From positions 75,559 to 139,558 of the forward strand of contig JBBATH010000002.1 of the NCBI GenBank assembly GCA_040398845.1: a stretch of DNA of 64,000 nt, written 5' to 3'. The position numbers were made by a program, and so were the translations under genes. The stretch comes from Candidatus Nanopelagicales bacterium (GTDB lineage Bacteria > Actinomycetota > Actinomycetes > S36-B12). Positions 52,545 to 64,000 of this stretch are shown one piece after another; the first letter of the stretch is position 1; each line of letters opens with the position of its first letter. A model generated the notes under the pieces. It ran no database searches, was not told the DNA's origin, and saw nothing but the letters and a program-made list of their open reading frames with translations.

Positions 52545-52621
52545 TGGTGCCCCCGATGGGATTTGAACCCATACTGTGCCGGGTTTAAGCCGGGTGTCTC
52601 TGCCAGTTGGACTACGGGGGC
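52545..52621 (-). tRNA. tRNA with anticodon UAA (Leu by the code), class I geometry, encoded CCA
   Basis: The minus strand reads GCCCCCG TA GTCCAACTGGCAGAGAC A CCCGG CTTAAAC CCGGC ACAGT ATGGG TTCAAAT CCCAT CGGGGGC A CCA. It has a 7-bp acceptor stem, a perfect T arm, U33, and anticodon U34-A35-A36. The variable loop is only 5 nt and the anticodon stem has a C-C mismatch. Confidence 0.8.
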
Positions 52622-58106: not shown

Positions 58107-58535
58107 CTATTGCCAGGCTCCAAGGATTCCGCCCATGACGACAAGCGCCGCGATATCGCCACCGACTTCGATTGCCCACACGACGAAACCCTGACCACCC
58201 ATGAGCCGGTGGCCCAGCGACGTGGTGGCCGAGAACCCGACTCCGACGATAAGTCCCATCACGGCACCGAGCATGAGGCCAACCTCGGTGCCGCTGTCGC
58301 GAAGCACGCCGATGATGAGGGCAAGGACGACTGCCTGAACGAACGCGGCAACACCGATGAGACCGAATGTCACGGCCATCGAACCGGAGCCCCCCGGCTT
58401 GTCCTCCGGCGAACGGCCGATTGCCTTCCACCAGATCGGGTAGAACGTCCTTGGCCCGAACCATATTGAGCCCACGACGAATGCTGCGATCGTGCTCACC
58501 ACAACGGCGAGCCAGTTGACAGTAGTGAAATCCAT
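58107..58535 (-). CDS. DUF1761 membrane protein
   Basis: MDFTTVNWLAVVVSTIAAFVVGSIWFGPRTF is the typical DUF1761 N-terminus. 4 TM helices. Confidence 0.65.
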   Translation of the reverse strand: MDFTTVNWLAVVVSTIAAFVVGSIWFGPRTFYPIWWKAIGRSPEDKPGGSGSMAVTFGLIGVAAFVQAVVLALIIGVLRDSGTEVGLMLGAVMGLIVGVGFSATTSLGHRLMGGQGFVVWAIEVGGDIAALVVMGGILGAWQ

Positions 58536-58573
58536 GGCGCGCACAGTAGCAGCCGGGCCCTGGAATGGGCCGA

Positions 58574-59275
58574 CTATTTAGCCTGCGGGGAACTCCGGCC
58601 GAACAGTTGCGCCGGCCTTCCCCGTCGTCCCTCAGCGGCAGCCGGCAGCGACTCAAGTTCGTCGATCATGACCCGGCGAAAGGTGTCCTTTTGGAGCTCG
58701 CGGCCAGCCACCGCCTCGTGCACGACGCGCAGGTCGGCGATGGTGAAGGAATCCGGCAGCAGCCTGCGTGGGTCCGGGAGCGCTCGATACTCCTGTCGTA
58801 GTCGCTCGGTCGCGAGATCGATGATTGCGAGGTGGTCGTATGGCAAGCGCAGTCGCGACGGGAGTACCCCGATGCGCGTGTGAGCCGGTTTTCGCAGCCG
58901 TTCCAGGTCAGCGAACGCGAGCACATCGAGGTGGGCGACCGAAAGCACCCAGCCGCGATCATCTCGCGCCGGGTCGTCGAAGACATGGAGTTGCTGCGGC
59001 TCCCGACCCGTCACCCCTGCCTTTACTTCAAGGGATCGGCGCACGGCTTCGGCGAGGGTCTCCCCCTCATGGAGGAAGGTGCCCGGCAGCGCCCAATCCG
59101 CGAGCGCGCCAACCGATTGTGGGGGTCGCCGAACGAGCAAGATGCCCAGTCGCGCAGCGTTGCCAACGGCAGGGGGGATCACGGTCATGAGGGCCGTATC
59201 TACCGCAACTGACGGCCGCGGATAGTGAGCCAACGCTCGACCGTCGCCGTCACGAAAAGCCTCGTCCCGAACCAC
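58574..59275 (-). CDS. NrtR-like regulator (degenerate Nudix domain plus C-terminal winged helix)
   Basis: Nudix box GTFLHEGETLAEAVRRSLEVKAGV lacks the REx2EE glutamates. The C-terminal FTIADLRVVHEAVAGRELQKDTFRRVMIDEL matches the NrtR wHTH (FTL..LQ.vyE.ilg..ldkrNFRRK). Confidence 0.75.
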   Translation of the reverse strand: MVRDEAFRDGDGRALAHYPRPSVAVDTALMTVIPPAVGNAARLGILLVRRPPQSVGALADWALPGTFLHEGETLAEAVRRSLEVKAGVTGREPQQLHVFDDPARDDRGWVLSVAHLDVLAFADLERLRKPAHTRIGVLPSRLRLPYDHLAIIDLATERLRQEYRALPDPRRLLPDSFTIADLRVVHEAVAGRELQKDTFRRVMIDELESLPAAAEGRRGRPAQLFGRSSPQAK

Positions 59276-59295
59276 CAGTCCATTGTGTCGGACAG

Positions 59296-59351
59296 TTGCG
59301 CTACTGTCTTCCTTATTAGCGCAATTTTAATCTAATTAGTCAGGTTGCGCT
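59296..59351. promoter_or_regulatory. candidate operator repeats in the AT-rich divergent spacer
   Basis: TTGCGCT (59296-59302) and AGCGCAA (59318-59324) form an inverted repeat. CTAATTAG (59332-59339) is a palindrome. A third TTGCGCT lies at 59345-59351. Confidence 0.35.
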
Positions 59352-59379
59352 TTCCGGGTCCGAGGAGAGCAAGGAGCAC

Positions 59380-60276
59380 ATGATGACGAGGACGAGACAG
59401 ATCCCCCAACTGCATGTCGGACGCGGCACACAGGCCGGACCGCTCACCGTGTTTCCCGTCTGGTCGAGTGAACCGGAGCTGACCAGCCTGTCAATGGGCG
59501 TCAGCGCCCAGATCGAGGCAGGTGAACGCGAAGGCAGCCCCGTGGTCGGCGAGCTCATCGTCAAGAACACCGGATCCACCACCGCGCTGCTCGTCGAGGG
59601 TGAACTGCTCGAAGGCGGCTGGCAGCACCGGGCACTGCAGCACGACCTCATCCTCAAACCGGGCAGCACCATGGTTGCCCCAGTCGTCTGCGTTGAGGCA
59701 GGCAGGTGGAGCGGTGACGGCAGGGTCCTTACCCGCAATGCGCGACGCGCATCAGGCAACGTCCGCGCAGCCATGCGCTTACACGACGACCACGTCCGTC
59801 AAGGTCGCGTGTGGAGCGAGGTGTCGGCCTACGATCATTCGATGGGGGCTTCGCGGACCTCGTCCTACGTCGATCATCTCGACCGACTCCACTCATCGAA
59901 TGACCGTCCAAAGACCCCGGTCCTTGATGGCCAGCGCGGGGTCATCGTCGGCCTTGCCGGCCAGCCGGTGCTCCTCGAGGTTTTCCCCTCGCAAGCATGC
60001 CTCGCCGCAGGACTCCCAGACCTCCTCGCCGCACTCATGTTCGATGCACTCGCAAGCGGCGGCCCGTCCGAGTTGACCCCAGGTCGGCGGGCAAGACGCC
60101 TCGTCGAGCGTCTCGACGGCCGGCACGCGCACCGCTCACCCGCGGTCGATGCCGGATCCGGCGAAGCCTTCGTCCTCGACACTCAATACGCAGCCCTCCG
60201 AGGAGTTGCCCTTGATGATTCTTGGGCCCACCTCACTGCGTTCAATCGCCGCCACCGACTCGTGGAGGTCTCATGA
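59380..60276 (+). CDS. ARPP-like protein (ARG and Rhodanese-Phosphatase-superfamily Associated Protein family, from memory)
   Basis: 298 aa with RBS aaggag. The N-terminal LHVGRGTQAGPLTVFPVW motif is what I recall from proteins encoded next to ARG genes. The stop overlaps the next ATG (ATGA). The family call is unverified. Confidence 0.55.
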   Translation: MMTRTRQIPQLHVGRGTQAGPLTVFPVWSSEPELTSLSMGVSAQIEAGEREGSPVVGELIVKNTGSTTALLVEGELLEGGWQHRALQHDLILKPGSTMVAPVVCVEAGRWSGDGRVLTRNARRASGNVRAAMRLHDDHVRQGRVWSEVSAYDHSMGASRTSSYVDHLDRLHSSNDRPKTPVLDGQRGVIVGLAGQPVLLEVFPSQACLAAGLPDLLAALMFDALASGGPSELTPGRRARRLVERLDGRHAHRSPAVDAGSGEAFVLDTQYAALRGVALDDSWAHLTAFNRRHRLVEVS

Positions 60277-61787
60277 CCATCGCCAAGCCCAGCGCACCAT
60301 CGCTCTCCACGGTTCAAGCCGACCGCGCCGCCGGCGTACTCCTCGGCCTCGCATGCGGTGACGCACTCGGGGCCGGCTACGAGTTCCAGCCGGCGCGAAT
60401 CCATGGCGAGCCTGTCGACATGGTCGGCGGCGGCGGATTCGGCTGGGCACCCGGAGAATGGACTGACGATACGTCGATGGCGGTCGCGATCGCGGAAACG
60501 TCATCCACGGGCGTCGACCTCAGATCATCCACGGCCCTCGACGCCATCACGGTGCGCTTCGTCAACTGGGCCAAGGATGCACCAGATGTCGGCATCCAGA
60601 CAGGGTCCGTCCTCCGCTCGATCGCAGCCGATCCAACGAGCGCTGCCGCCGCAACCAGCGCCCGCGAGCACTTCGCCAGGACAGGCCGCACTGGCAACGG
60701 ATCCCTTATGAGAACAGCGCCTGTCGCCCTTGCGTACCTGCATGACCCCGAGGCACGGGGGCAGGCTGCCCGCTCCATCAGCGGGCTCACCCACGGTGAT
60801 GATGATGCTGGCGACGCGTGCGCCCTGTGGTGCGATGCCATCGCCCATGCAGTGATTCACGGCAATCTCGAGGGCCTAAGGCTCGCACTCGCGGCCCTAC
60901 CGGCAGACCGGGCTCGAGTCTGGTCCGAACGACTGGACCACGCCGAGTCGGTTGCACCGCACGAGATCCCACACAACGGCTGGGTTGTCGCGGCACTCCA
61001 GGCTGCCTGGTCGGCCATCACCAGGACACCGGTCCCCACCGATGATCCGGCCAACGGCCGCTTCCCCGCCCAGCACCTCACCCTGGCCCTCGATACCGCC
61101 GTACGCGCCGGCGACGATACCGACACCGTTGCCGCCATCGCCGGCGGACTCCTCGGGGCACGGTGGGGAGCATCAGCGATTCCCACGCAATGGCAACGGA
61201 TTCTGCACGGCTGGCCGGGAGTTCGAGCCCGTGACCTCATCCGCCTCGGGCTGCTCACCGCCCGCGCTGGCACGCCCGACGCTTCCGGCTGGCCCCTCGA
61301 AGCAATTCACGATTACTCGGGCTACCCCGGGGCCGATGCCCTCGCGACTCACCCACACGACTCCGGCGTCCTGCTCTCCGGCGTCCGGCATCTCAGGCAT
61401 CTGCCGGAGGGGGTCGATGCCGTCGTATCCCTCTGCCGGCTCGGAGCGGACGAGGTACCACCGTCCGGGGTAACGGCCGGTGATCACCTCGAGGTCTGGC
61501 TCGTCGACAGCGACGACCCTGCCGTCAACCCGAACCTCTGCTGCGTTCTCACTCAGGCAGCCGATGCAGTCGCCGCGCTGCGCGCCGAGGGTCGAACGGT
61601 GCTTCTGCACTGCGTTCAGGCGCAGAGCCGGACACCTGCTGTCGCCGCCCGGTACTCCGCCCGGCACCGCGGAATCGCGATCAGTCAGGCGTTCGCAGAC
61701 GTGCAGTCGGCACTCCCCCACGCCCATCCGAACGCCACTTTCCGAGCCGCCCTCGAAAGCCTGTCACCCGGACTTCCCGCCGGCTAG
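60273..61787 (+). CDS. ADP-ribosylglycohydrolase fused to a CX5R (dual-specificity/PTP-like) phosphatase domain
   Basis: ARG motifs GLACGDALGAGYEF, GEWTDDTSMAVAIAE and GDDTDTVAAIAGGLLGARWGASAIP. The C-terminal P-loop is VLLHCVQAQSRTPAV (Cys-X5-Arg). 504 aa from the ATG at 60273. Confidence 0.8.
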   Translation: MTIAKPSAPSLSTVQADRAAGVLLGLACGDALGAGYEFQPARIHGEPVDMVGGGGFGWAPGEWTDDTSMAVAIAETSSTGVDLRSSTALDAITVRFVNWAKDAPDVGIQTGSVLRSIAADPTSAAAATSAREHFARTGRTGNGSLMRTAPVALAYLHDPEARGQAARSISGLTHGDDDAGDACALWCDAIAHAVIHGNLEGLRLALAALPADRARVWSERLDHAESVAPHEIPHNGWVVAALQAAWSAITRTPVPTDDPANGRFPAQHLTLALDTAVRAGDDTDTVAAIAGGLLGARWGASAIPTQWQRILHGWPGVRARDLIRLGLLTARAGTPDASGWPLEAIHDYSGYPGADALATHPHDSGVLLSGVRHLRHLPEGVDAVVSLCRLGADEVPPSGVTAGDHLEVWLVDSDDPAVNPNLCCVLTQAADAVAALRAEGRTVLLHCVQAQSRTPAVAARYSARHRGIAISQAFADVQSALPHAHPNATFRAALESLSPGLPAG

Positions 61788-64000
61788 CCCGCCAGCAATT
61801 GCGAGGCCAGGGTGAAGTCGGCCGGCAACGGTTCGTCCAGTCGCCATACGAACGACACTGGACGCTCACCCTGGTGCGACACGTACTGCGCTGAGCCCAG
61901 GAAAAGATAGGGCCTGGTGCCAAACTCCCAGTCCGGGCTCTCCCGCGCAAACAGGAGTATGCGGTGCCCCTCCGCAGCATGCCGGATGTATCGCTGGATT
62001 TTCGCCGACCTCTCGCGGTCGGCATGCTGCGACTGCCAATGGATGAGGCGGTCCGAAATGGCATAGTCGCGGTACATGGTGTGAGGTGAATACCGGCCCT
62101 CAACCTTCTGCCAGGTCATGTTGAACACGTCAGCATCAAACGCTCTGGCATGCACGACCCCCTCACGATTGTCGTACGGCGACTTGACCATGCTTCCCTC
62201 ACCCACCGCGGTGAGCATCTCCGCGCGGCTGTAACGGGCGTGGATGCTCAGGGGTAGGTCTGGAACCCTCGGACCGATCGGTGTCGTGACATGGGAAAAG
62301 CGGTCAGCCACCACCTCCCACGCCTGGAGGAGTTCCTCCCGGAAGGCCCCGCAGACATGGGCCGCCAACAGACCATCAACAACGGATCCGTGCCCAATCT
62401 TCGGCCAGATTGCGTGGTAAAGCATGAGTGCGAGGCGCTGCTCCGTGGCACTGAGATCGGGAATCGACCGCACGTAGTCGGCCTCGCCGATGAACCGGCG
62501 GTACGCATCGAGCCGTGGCTGATCGTCGATATGGAGCATCGATGCAACCCGCTTCAGCAACCTCGACTCGCCGTCGGTCGACGGCGCCGTCGTGATCCCA
62601 GCCATGCGGACGAGATCGGTCCAGTTGCGTCCGGTCGATCCGTAGATGTCTGCGAGGTCTAAGCCCGACTCTGCCAGATAGTTTGTGAGCCGATACTCGA
62701 TCGCACTACTCCGACCAGCATGCTCGCGAATATCCGCTGCGATGGCGGCCTTCGAGGATGGGAGTGCGGACTTGATGTTCTCGAGGACAAGCCGCGAAGC
62801 AACCTCATCCATCCGGATAAACGCGCCCGACGGCAGATAGGGGAAGCCCTGGGCAATCGCCTGTTCGAGTCGACGGCGGCCGATACCGGTGAGCGCACGA
62901 AACCGGATGTCGTAGCGAAACTCCTTGCGCTGCATCCCAACGAGGTCGAGCACCGTGAGGAACGACTTGGCGGAGGTCTTACGCAAGCCTCGCCCAAGCT
63001 GCTGCAGAAAAACGGTGCCCGACTCGGTCGGGCGGAGCATGACGACCGTATCGACCTCGGGGATGTCGACGCCTTCGTTGAAGATATCGACCGAGACGAT
63101 GGCCGAGATGGCCCCCGCCCGCAGGTCTCGGATCGCTTGGGCACGAACCGGCTTCGGCGTTTGCGCGTCAAGGGCAATCGACGCAATGCCCGCCTCGTTG
63201 AGCCGCAGGGCGACGAAGCGCGCGTGACGCACCCCGCCCGCGAAGACGAGCGCCTTCATCGTCAGGGGGTCCGTCACCACGTGGGCGATCTCGCGCAAGA
63301 CCCAATTCATGATGACGTCATTGCCGGTGAGGACCTCATCGAGATCATCAGCGTTGTAACGTCCAGCGTTCCAACGGGCCCGGCTAAAGTCGAGTTCTTC
63401 GCTCCCGACTGCGAAATAGTGGAAGGGCACAAGGAGGTTGCGCTCTAGTGCGTCCCAGAGCCTCAGCTCCGAGGCAATGCGGCCGTCGAACCATTGCGTG
63501 ACGTCGATGCCGTCGGGCCGCTCAGGGGTCGCGGTGAGACCGAGCATGATCTTGGGCCGCAGGTAGTCGAGGAGTCGTTGGTACGAAACGGCTCCGGCAT
63601 GATGGAATTCGTCGACGATGACGATGTCGTAGTAGTCAGCAGCCACCCCGACCAGACGACTCGATGCCGAGAGGGACTGGATCGACGCGAACACCTGATC
63701 GCCCGCAACCGGTTCATGCCCGTCGACGAGCAGCTCGCCGAACGAGGCATCCTTGAGTACCTGCCGGAAGACCCCAAGCGATTGGGTGAGGATTTCCTTG
63801 CGGTGCGCGACGAACAACAACCGCGGGTAACGACCCGGAGTGCTCGCCCACCTGCGTTCCTCCGCCAATCGCCGATAGTCGAATGCAGCAACGAGGGTCT
63901 TGCCCGTGCCAGTTGCAGCGACGACGAGATTGCGGTGTCGTTGGTAGACCTCGCGTTCGCGCCGCAGATCGTCGAGCATCTCCTGCTGAAACGGATACGG
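61784..64000 (-). CDS. DExH-box helicase with C-terminal DUF3427-like domain; N-terminus beyond window end
   Basis: Motif I AATGTGKT, II DEFHH, III TATPER, VI QQLGRGLR. The C-terminal HARYSRAEML...YRDYAISDRLIHWQSQ...ILLFARE...YLFLGSAQYVSHQGERPVSFVWRL fits my memory of DUF3427. The frame stays open to 64000 (PYPFQQEMLDDL). Confidence 0.8.
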   Translation of the reverse strand, partial: PYPFQQEMLDDLRREREVYQRHRNLVVAATGTGKTLVAAFDYRRLAEERRWASTPGRYPRLLFVAHRKEILTQSLGVFRQVLKDASFGELLVDGHEPVAGDQVFASIQSLSASSRLVGVAADYYDIVIVDEFHHAGAVSYQRLLDYLRPKIMLGLTATPERPDGIDVTQWFDGRIASELRLWDALERNLLVPFHYFAVGSEELDFSRARWNAGRYNADDLDEVLTGNDVIMNWVLREIAHVVTDPLTMKALVFAGGVRHARFVALRLNEAGIASIALDAQTPKPVRAQAIRDLRAGAISAIVSVDIFNEGVDIPEVDTVVMLRPTESGTVFLQQLGRGLRKTSAKSFLTVLDLVGMQRKEFRYDIRFRALTGIGRRRLEQAIAQGFPYLPSGAFIRMDEVASRLVLENIKSALPSSKAAIAADIREHAGRSSAIEYRLTNYLAESGLDLADIYGSTGRNWTDLVRMAGITTAPSTDGESRLLKRVASMLHIDDQPRLDAYRRFIGEADYVRSIPDLSATEQRLALMLYHAIWPKIGHGSVVDGLLAAHVCGAFREELLQAWEVVADRFSHVTTPIGPRVPDLPLSIHARYSRAEMLTAVGEGSMVKSPYDNREGVVHARAFDADVFNMTWQKVEGRYSPHTMYRDYAISDRLIHWQSQHADRERSAKIQRYIRHAAEGHRILLFARESPDWEFGTRPYLFLGSAQYVSHQGERPVSFVWRLDEPLPADFTLASQLLAG

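Follow-up and report, generated by a model that had tools for sequence, protein, structure and literature searches.

In a 64,000-nucleotide stretch of DNA from a Candidatus Nanopelagicales bacterium (contig JBBATH010000002.1; hereafter the window), a divergently transcribed NrtR-like regulator gene and a two-gene operon have in common a single conserved, palindromic predicted operator. The first gene of the operon encodes a protein of the ARPP family, and the second a fusion of an ADP-ribosylglycohydrolase (ARG) domain with a predicted Cys-based phosphatase domain (Table 1). The identity of these parts can be given with high confidence. The three genes may well form an ARG-centric module that responds to ADP-ribose and acts as an 'eraser' of ADP-ribosylation, and this is the function we favour, although tentatively. 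Systems of this type have already been described, by computation only, since Iyer, Burroughs, Anantharaman and Aravind (2022; Viruses 14:1977, section 3.8; PMC9503650) gave the same gene set, named ARPP and predicted its fold; they proposed operons that are induced by ADP-ribose and reverse viral ADP-ribosylation. As both the architecture and the hypothesis are thus in print, the discovery is a modest one.

A sequence-only reading of the window had proposed an ARPP-like protein of 298 amino acids whose gene overlaps, in an ATGA, that of a 504-residue protein joining a complete ARG domain to a C-terminal Cys-based phosphatase. The two were expected to be neighbours elsewhere and to have no characterised member. 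Both frames lie where that reading placed them and its motifs are present; the profile matches, invariant residues and adjacency counts given below bear out the rest, and no experimental study of ARPP/DUF6569 or of an ARG-phosphatase fusion was found in the searched literature. The same reading had the pair making, sensing or degrading a phosphorylated derivative of ADP-ribose, which is a candidate substrate.

Relatives of the locus were sampled by scanning one genome per species, which gave 568 ARPP loci; 80 of these were retained for comparison. All neighbourhood counts are homology-based. ARPPs at least about 35% identical to that of the window are referred to as the nearer clade, for which the denominators count those loci whose flanking sequence was long enough. 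A close relative of the window (L001) has 86% nucleotide identity to it, and two near-identical metagenome contigs syntenic with the window (L081 and L082) were reached through a 99%-identical fusion protein (P0121).

The ARPP protein

The first open reading frame (ORF1) matches PF20208 over its full length (profile positions 1-297 of 297; E-value 3e-59, 201 bits against a cut-off of 27). Two ATG codons, at 59380 and 59383, follow the AAGGAG ribosome-binding site by 3 and 6 nucleotides respectively. Because of this spacing, and because the closest homologues are 297 amino acids long, the second is favoured and is probably the true start. A word-indexed search returned 484 homologues at E ≤ 1e-5, all of them PF20208 members and all unnamed, and an exhaustive search returned 6,971 clusters at 50% identity with E ≤ 1e-3, or 4,317 with E ≤ 1e-10. 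An exact-sequence look-up of the window's ARPP gave no match, NCBIfam has no model for the family, and the protein was found in none of 50,697 phage genomes. Two Pimelobacter plasmids also carry ARPP, followed in turn by a 94-amino-acid gene, ARG and a RecB-like nuclease.

In an alignment of 139 sequences 24-47% identical to that of the window, residues G14, P26, E49, G74, Q82, R84, C104, V105, E106, R109, W110, Q141, W145, Q185 and G187 are conserved in at least 95% of members, and H284 and D222 in 85-95%. The residues E49, Q82, R84, C104, E106, R109, W110, Q141, W145 and Q185 are invariant family-wide, and C104, Q82, Q141 and Q185 are also invariant in two further alignments (A1 and A2). Most of the conserved positions lie within a beta-rich segment, residues 37-110. 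The AlphaFold2 model is confident (predicted local distance difference test, pLDDT, 90.8; predicted template-modelling score, pTM, 0.90), and the order of its secondary-structure elements, which is all that was taken from it here, places N- and C-terminal strand sets around the beta-rich segment (residues 37-104 in the model) that holds E49 to W110. This pattern fits the description in section 3.8 of Iyer et al. (2022, PMC9503650), where a beta-meander core is predicted and a conserved Cys and Gln are placed on an inserted beta subdomain. Taken together, the alignments point to the conserved residues as a putative active site or ligand pocket. The ARPP profile found no match at E ≤ 1 among sequences in the Protein Data Bank (PDB), and a Foldseek search with the model returned no solved structural relative.

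The ARG-phosphatase fusion

The second open reading frame (ORF2; 60273-61787, plus strand) encodes 504 amino acids. Its start is preceded by GGAGG (60264-60268) and overlaps the ARPP stop, in translational coupling of the two genes. Of 24 related loci, at least 16 likewise have an (A/G)TGA overlap between ARPP and the ARG gene, and the fusion has more than 6,800 relatives, including the 99%-identical metagenomic copy. Both reading frames are therefore taken to be real rather than chance frames, given the many homologues of each and the recurring overlap.

The ARG domain (residues 21-305) contains the motifs GEWTDDTSMAVAIAE and GDDTDTVAAIAGGLLGARWG. In 61 fusion homologues E37, T64-D65-D66-T67 and D282-T283-D284-T285 are invariant; the TDDT and DTDT stretches among them are the metal-binding motifs of the domain, so that its metal-binding and catalytic residues are intact. 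The nearest solved or curated relatives by sequence are Tri1 and DraG, both arginine-specific. The AlphaFold2 model of the fusion is a confident single body that includes the linker (pLDDT 94.5, pTM 0.94), and its ARG half superposes on 2yzv/2cwc (template-modelling score 0.83 to 2yzv), on Tri1 (6dre) and on DraG.

The C-terminal part matches the DSPc profile (PF00782) at residues 417-494, scoring 32.1 bits within the full-length protein and 34.6 bits as an isolated domain, against a cut-off of 33.5. A profile of the domain searched against PDB sequences leads to atypical DUSPs, with DUSP28 (5y16) at 2e-9. The P-loop reads HCVQAQSRT, and in the 61 homologues H446, C447, R453, T454 and D412 are invariant or nearly so, with Cys447, Arg453 and Asp412 strictly invariant. 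Judged by its HCX5R motif and invariant Asp, the domain is a predicted DUSP-type Cys-based phosphatase.

The alignment of the window with L001 stops at 61267 and restarts at 61782, such that L001 lacks exactly positions 61268-61781 (L001 2333-2348). Proteins with the ARG domain only, of 335-338 amino acids and 88-89% identity, come from several samples (P0151, P0152, P0160 and P0164). Conversely, one predicted protein of 782 amino acids (P0262) carries ARPP-1, ADP_ribosyl_GH and DSPc in a single chain. As a single cluster, it could be a true fusion, or it could be an assembly artefact or a one-base error across the ATGA overlap.

The NrtR-like regulator and its predicted operator

The regulator scores 84 bits with the NCBIfam NrtR model (NF050029), for which the equivalog cut-off is 400, and it is therefore regarded as a paralogue and not as the NAD-biosynthesis equivalog. 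The REUxEE box of its Nudix domain reads RRSLEV, and the box is degenerate in all 31 aligned orthologues. With a degenerate box the protein would be a sensor and not a hydrolase, and it probably does not help to degrade ADP-ribose. An NrtR-like gene is divergent from, and adjoins, ARPP in 24 of 34 related loci, and it is part of the unit.

The predicted operator is a 20-bp imperfect palindrome, TTAGCGCAATTTTAATCTAA. A weight matrix trained on 24 orthologous loci only, with the window left out (consensus TTAGCGCAnATnTGCGCTAA), scores the site at 22.6 bits, the best in the 64 kb, with the runner-up at 11.8. Equivalent sites occur in 21 of the 24 loci, 20-102 nucleotides upstream of the ARPP start and in all but one case within 75. 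The idealised operator pattern by itself gives two matches in the window against 1.8 expected, which is not significant. The intergenic region between nrtR and ARPP yielded no sigma-70-like promoter.

NrtR proteins leave DNA upon binding ADP-ribose (PMC2330246), and the same study lists, in Actinobacteria, an nrtR-draG operon and a divergon of unknown function, nrtR<#>nrtX-nrtY. The divergon in the window may correspond to the nrtR2<#>nrtX-nrtY that the 2008 study has for Kineococcus, Frankia and Proteus, with nrtX and nrtY as candidates for its two genes.

Two minor features adjoin the regulator gene. Between the nrtR start and the operator lies an inverted repeat, GGACAGT-N6-ACTGTCT (59290-59309), which was flagged as terminator-like. 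Its stem appears changed on both sides in relatives, reading GGACGGT/ACCGTTC in L001 and GGACGAG/CTCATTT in L013, and it may serve as a further protein site or form a hairpin in the 5' untranslated region of nrtR. At the other end, a gene for a DUF1761 membrane protein (58107-58544, minus strand) follows nrtR after 30 nucleotides on the same strand and may be co-transcribed with it. Only the closest relatives (L013, L081 and L082) share this arrangement.

Table 1. Positions of the module and of surrounding features in the window
Feature	Position	Strand	Basis and remarks
NrtR-like repressor gene	58574-59275	-	Pfam NrtR_WHD 4e-11, NUDIX 3e-7
Predicted operator, 20-bp imperfect palindrome	59316-59335		Within 104-bp divergent intergenic region
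Ribosome-binding site AAGGAG of ARPP	59371-59376	+	Sequence
ARPP (Pfam ARPP-1, PF20208; RefSeq name DUF6569), 298 or 297 amino acids	59380/59383-60276	+	Pfam
Invariant Cys104 codon of ARPP	59689-59691	+	Alignment
ATGA overlap of ARPP stop and fusion start	60273-60276	+	Sequence; translational coupling
ARG/ARH domain (PF03747)	60333-61187	+	Residues 21-305 of fusion; Pfam ADP_ribosyl_GH, E 5e-52
Linker and predicted DUSP-type Cys-phosphatase segment	61268-61781	+	DSPc profile; same segment missing in L001
P-loop HCVQAQSRT	61608-61634	+	Cys447 codon 61611-61613
PLD-helicase-DUF3427 gene, 3' two-thirds	61784-63979	-	PADLOC type IV restriction model mREase_IV 1e-193, profile positions 226-936 of 945
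tRNA gene	52548-52621	-	Rfam, 55 bits; ~6 kb upstream of module, past the lacI-ppx-DUF501-divIC-eno block
Core genes lacI-ppx-DUF501-divIC-eno			Block upstream of module

Conservation and modularity

In the nearer clade, ARG is the next same-strand gene after ARPP in 23 of 36 loci, and it carries the phosphatase domain in 20 of the 36. Either member of the pair can be exchanged. TY-Chap1 (PF22551) holds the ARPP slot directly upstream of ARG-phosphatase in all four sampled genes that are 60-65% identical to that of the window, from Pengzhenrongella, Friedmanniella, Microlunatus and one metagenome contig (L083, L084, L085 and L088), and the TY-Chap1/ARG-phosphatase overlap is 4 nucleotides in L083 and L088. 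A 72%-identical ARG-phosphatase gene has ARPP. TY-Chap1 was never seen inside an ARPP operon. A neighbour-joining tree of ARG domains, drawn without bootstrap, places the genes linked to TY-Chap1 among those linked to ARPP. Remote homology of ARPP and TY-Chap1 was considered and rejected (hhalign probability 0.1%), so that TY-Chap1 in this slot is a non-homologous replacement. In some other ARPP loci an HD_4 phosphohydrolase stands in place of ARG-phosphatase.

The genes called in the near-identical locus L081 include no ADP-ribosyltransferase, and no NAD biosynthesis or salvage gene was found in the operon or among the neighbour genes called in L081.

Proposed function and its alternatives

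In the eraser model, the NrtR-like repressor would leave its operator when free ADP-ribose binds the Nudix-like domain, as is known for the family. Since NrtR repressors are released by ADP-ribose, the operon would be off by default and on when ADP-ribose accumulates. From the translational coupling, ARPP and the fusion protein are expected to work jointly and would probably form a complex. The ARG domain, with its residues intact and Tri1 and DraG as its relatives, would cut ADP-ribose off a modified macromolecule, the modification presumably having been made by a transferase from outside the locus, such as one of a phage or a toxin. De-repression of the operon would be strengthened by the ADP-ribose set free in this way, and the fused Cys-phosphatase would remove a phosphomonoester either from the released product or from the substrate. 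The weakest step is that of ARPP, which might provide substrate recognition or thiol-dependent processing of the ribose or ADP-ribose moiety. This role is suggested by the invariant Cys, Glu, three Gln, Arg and Trp in the predicted inserted beta-rich subdomain, and by its slot, which in sister operons is held by the peptide-binding chaperone TY-Chap1.

Several observations count in favour of the eraser model. The family assignments, the predicted operator, the degenerate Nudix box, the conserved neighbourhood, the coupling of the two genes and the intact catalytic residues with confident models, all described above, fit it. The context is of a conflict type (PLD-helicase, Schlafen-like, SIR2_2, NERD-UvrD, HD_4, vWA, MBL and RecB-like genes), ARPP is absent from phage genomes, no transferase was called in L081, and the same gene set has been published. 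Other observations weigh against it. The locus adjoins the core genes eno, divIC and ppx, and PADLOC has no model for any of the three genes (ARPP, the fusion protein or the NrtR-like regulator). The fusion protein is 60-65% identical across genera, which is more in line with a housekeeping role than with an arms race, and a natural close relative (L001) does without the phosphatase domain, which is thus dispensable. The predicted operator, of 20 bp and without a GT-N7-AC core, is unlike published NrtR boxes. The distant ARPP clade has neither ARG (0 of 30) nor NrtR (0 of 38), its commonest neighbour being WYL/WCX regulators. Because such ARPPs occur without ARG, the protein must have a function that does not require it. 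Finally, no biochemical or genetic study of any member was found in the searched literature, and we infer the substrate, the direction of the effect and the phenotype of the module alike.

An alternative that we regard as unlikely is repair of nucleic-acid ends, with ARG stripping ADP-ribose from DNA or RNA phosphate termini or bases, the phosphatase trimming a terminal phosphate and ARPP handling the sugar or lesion. ARH-like hydrolases do reverse ADP-ribosylation of RNA phosphate ends, and by analogy an operon of PARG with an HD-phosphatase/kinase has been proposed as an end-repair unit (PMC11833690). The neighbourhoods of ARPP are rich in NERD-UvrD, PDDEXK, RecB-like, REase-ARP and MBL/RMMBL genes, nucleases and helicases being natural partners for such a role; distant ARPPs pair with WYL regulators, and section 3.8 of Iyer et al. 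(2022, PMC9503650) reports an association with HIRAN. However, protein arginine is the target of Tri1 and DraG, the nearest characterised relatives of the ARG domain; there is neither a ligase nor a kinase, and nothing in the analysis indicates nucleic-acid binding.

It is rather improbable that the module serves housekeeping clearance or salvage of O-acetyl-ADP-ribose, ADP-ribose-1''-phosphate or 2'-phospho-ADP-ribose under NrtR, with no role in conflict. A fusion of phosphatase and glycohydrolase would suit a small phosphorylated metabolite, NrtR regulons are classically metabolic (PMC2330246), and both the core genes around the locus and the conservation of the fusion across Actinomycetes are in keeping with such a role. 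The lack of NAD biosynthesis or salvage genes in the operon and among the genes called in L081 argues otherwise, as do the modular exchange of non-homologous parts (ARPP or TY-Chap1, DSPc or HD_4), the recurrence of defence-type neighbours and the loss of the phosphatase domain in a close relative.

The likeness of the ARG domain to DraG and Tri1 also allows for an endogenous cycle of regulatory ADP-ribosylation on the pattern of DraT/DraG, in which the module would be the eraser and another part of the genome would encode the writer; the nrtR-draG operon of Streptomyces has been linked to reversible protein ADP-ribosylation (Rodionov et al., PMC2330246). Such a cycle would leave ARPP, the phosphatase domain and the nuclease and SIR2 neighbours unexplained, and a cognate transferase is missing from the genes called in L081; we consider it improbable. 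Very improbable, finally, is a toxin/antidote or abortive-infection logic in which ARPP is a repressed effector, harmful when expressed, that ARG-phosphatase modulates or reverses: the tight coupling to its partner and the distant lineages in which ARPP stands alone beside a WYL repressor would suit it, but no similarity to known toxin folds was found and a chaperone-like protein takes the same slot.

Returning to the eraser model, if the 2022 prediction is true then no bacterial system that reverses ADP-ribosylation by phages or toxins would have been known before this class of operon, and ARPP, whether enzyme or reader, would have a fold without any solved relative. A bolder version, which we think unlikely, would make ARPP a new-fold thiol-dependent enzyme or an ADP-ribose reader that provides, together with ARG-phosphatase, the first demonstrated host eraser immunity to foreign ADP-ribosylation, switched by ADP-ribose and wired to an abutting convergent effector. 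The effector would be a SIR2 NADase in seven loci and the restriction-like PLD-helicase enzyme in the window, and ADP-ribose from the NADase or from a phage transferase would act as the signal and also be cleared by the module. The window offers a compact test case, with one predicted operator, one putative sensor and two translationally coupled genes. It comes with natural controls in the close relative that lacks the phosphatase domain and in the sister operons that have TY-Chap1 for ARPP.

Relation to known systems

With the ARG-centric systems described in section 3.8 of Iyer et al. (2022), the locus has in common a negative regulator of the Nudix-HTH (NrtR) type, a fusion of ARG with a domain of the rhodanese-phosphatase superfamily, ARPP, variable nucleases or helicases, the lack of a linked ADP-ribosyltransferase and occurrence in Actinobacteria; compared with that description it differs in nothing by kind. 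The window holds ARG, a Nudix regulator and a coupled phosphatase, with no linked ADP-ribosyltransferase or classical sirtuin, although ThsA-like SIR2_2 genes, of which the window has none, occur in 10 of 80 related loci and in L086. Four details go beyond section 3.8, namely the degenerate Nudix box of the regulator, the alternation of ARPP and TY-Chap1 in one translationally coupled slot, the phosphatase domain that is present here and absent in a close relative, and the SIR2_2 neighbours in approximately one locus in eight.

NrtR regulons (Rodionov et al. 2008; MsNrtR, eLife 2019) likewise consist of a repressor with Nudix-like and winged-helix parts that is divergent from its target, with a palindromic operator in the common intergenic region, and ADP-ribose is the anti-repressor of the family. 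The targets in the window, however, are not NAD biosynthesis genes, and the predicted operator has the form TTAGCGC-N6-GCGCTAA in place of the GT-N7-AC core. The ADP-ribosylarginine hydrolases DraG and Tri1 share with the window's ARG the ARH fold and the TDDT and DxDT metal motifs, and supply its best matches (6dre, 2woc and 2cwc/2yzv). In contrast to these enzymes, the window's ARG scores far below the equivalog cut-offs, is fused to a Cys-phosphatase, is coupled to ARPP and has no cognate transferase (DraT or Tre1) near it. The atypical DUSPs (DUSP28, DUSP12, DUSP22 and VHR) resemble the phosphatase domain in their HCX5R(S/T) P-loop, upstream general-acid Asp and DSPc profile match. They differ in that the P-loop HCVQAQSRT is without the usual Gly and that an invariant GWP...DY...HPHD extension ties the domain to ARG. 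The likeness to SauUSI-type type IV restriction enzymes concerns the neighbouring PLD-helicase gene only, outside the ARPP/ARG core.

Neighbouring genes

The G+C content of the window is ~64%. An Rfam scan of the window found no match besides the distant tRNA gene listed in Table 1.

The gene convergent with the operon is cut by the end of the window, and the missing N-terminus of ~340 amino acids bears the PLD nuclease domain (63979-64000; L081 11512-14730). In L001 and L081 the full-length gene encodes 1067-1072 amino acids with PLDc_2, ResIII, Helicase_C and DUF3427, which we take to be the architecture of SauUSI. The stop codons of the fusion gene (plus strand) and the PLD-helicase gene (minus strand) overlap in CTAG (61784-61787), with no intergenic terminator. 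In syntenic L001 a Schlafen-like helicase lies beyond the PLD-helicase gene.

The sequence-only reading had suggested that the flanking NrtR-like regulator and the helicase make up one system with the pair, and had asked whether the same order recurs elsewhere. The regulator does belong, and both adjacencies among the first three genes recur in the nearer clade; the helicase does not follow. Its family is present in only 2 of the 80 surveyed loci, the close relative L001 and one with a distant ARPP (L058), and in the near-identical contigs L081 and L082, while L024 gives a weak, distant helicase match only. A place for the helicase among the core components was accordingly rejected, as it is rare among loci and sits in a variable convergent slot. 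It is a neighbouring, variable defence gene that probably acts independently.

A different gene recurs beside ARPP operons. ThsA-like SIR2_2 lies within 6 kb of ARPP in 10 of the 80 loci, and in seven of these it is convergent and abuts the 3' end of the operon. The SIR2_2 (STALD-type) loci are L014, L015, L018, L019, L023, L024, L026, L029, L059 and L062, to which L086 is added, where the SIR2_2 gene follows nrtR on the same strand; they include loci without ARG. This association, in about one locus in eight, is not mentioned in section 3.8 of Iyer et al. (2022). SIR2 NADases make ADP-ribose, the presumed inducer. In L014, L015, L023 and L024 the SIR2_2 gene convergently overlaps the 3' end of ARG-phosphatase, by 24-35 nucleotides in L015 and L014, and transcriptional interference at such convergent overlaps is possible. 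Other recurrent neighbours among the 80 loci are NERD-UvrD helicases (12 loci), HD_4 (9), vWA (7), HDAC-like (6) and MBL (5) genes.

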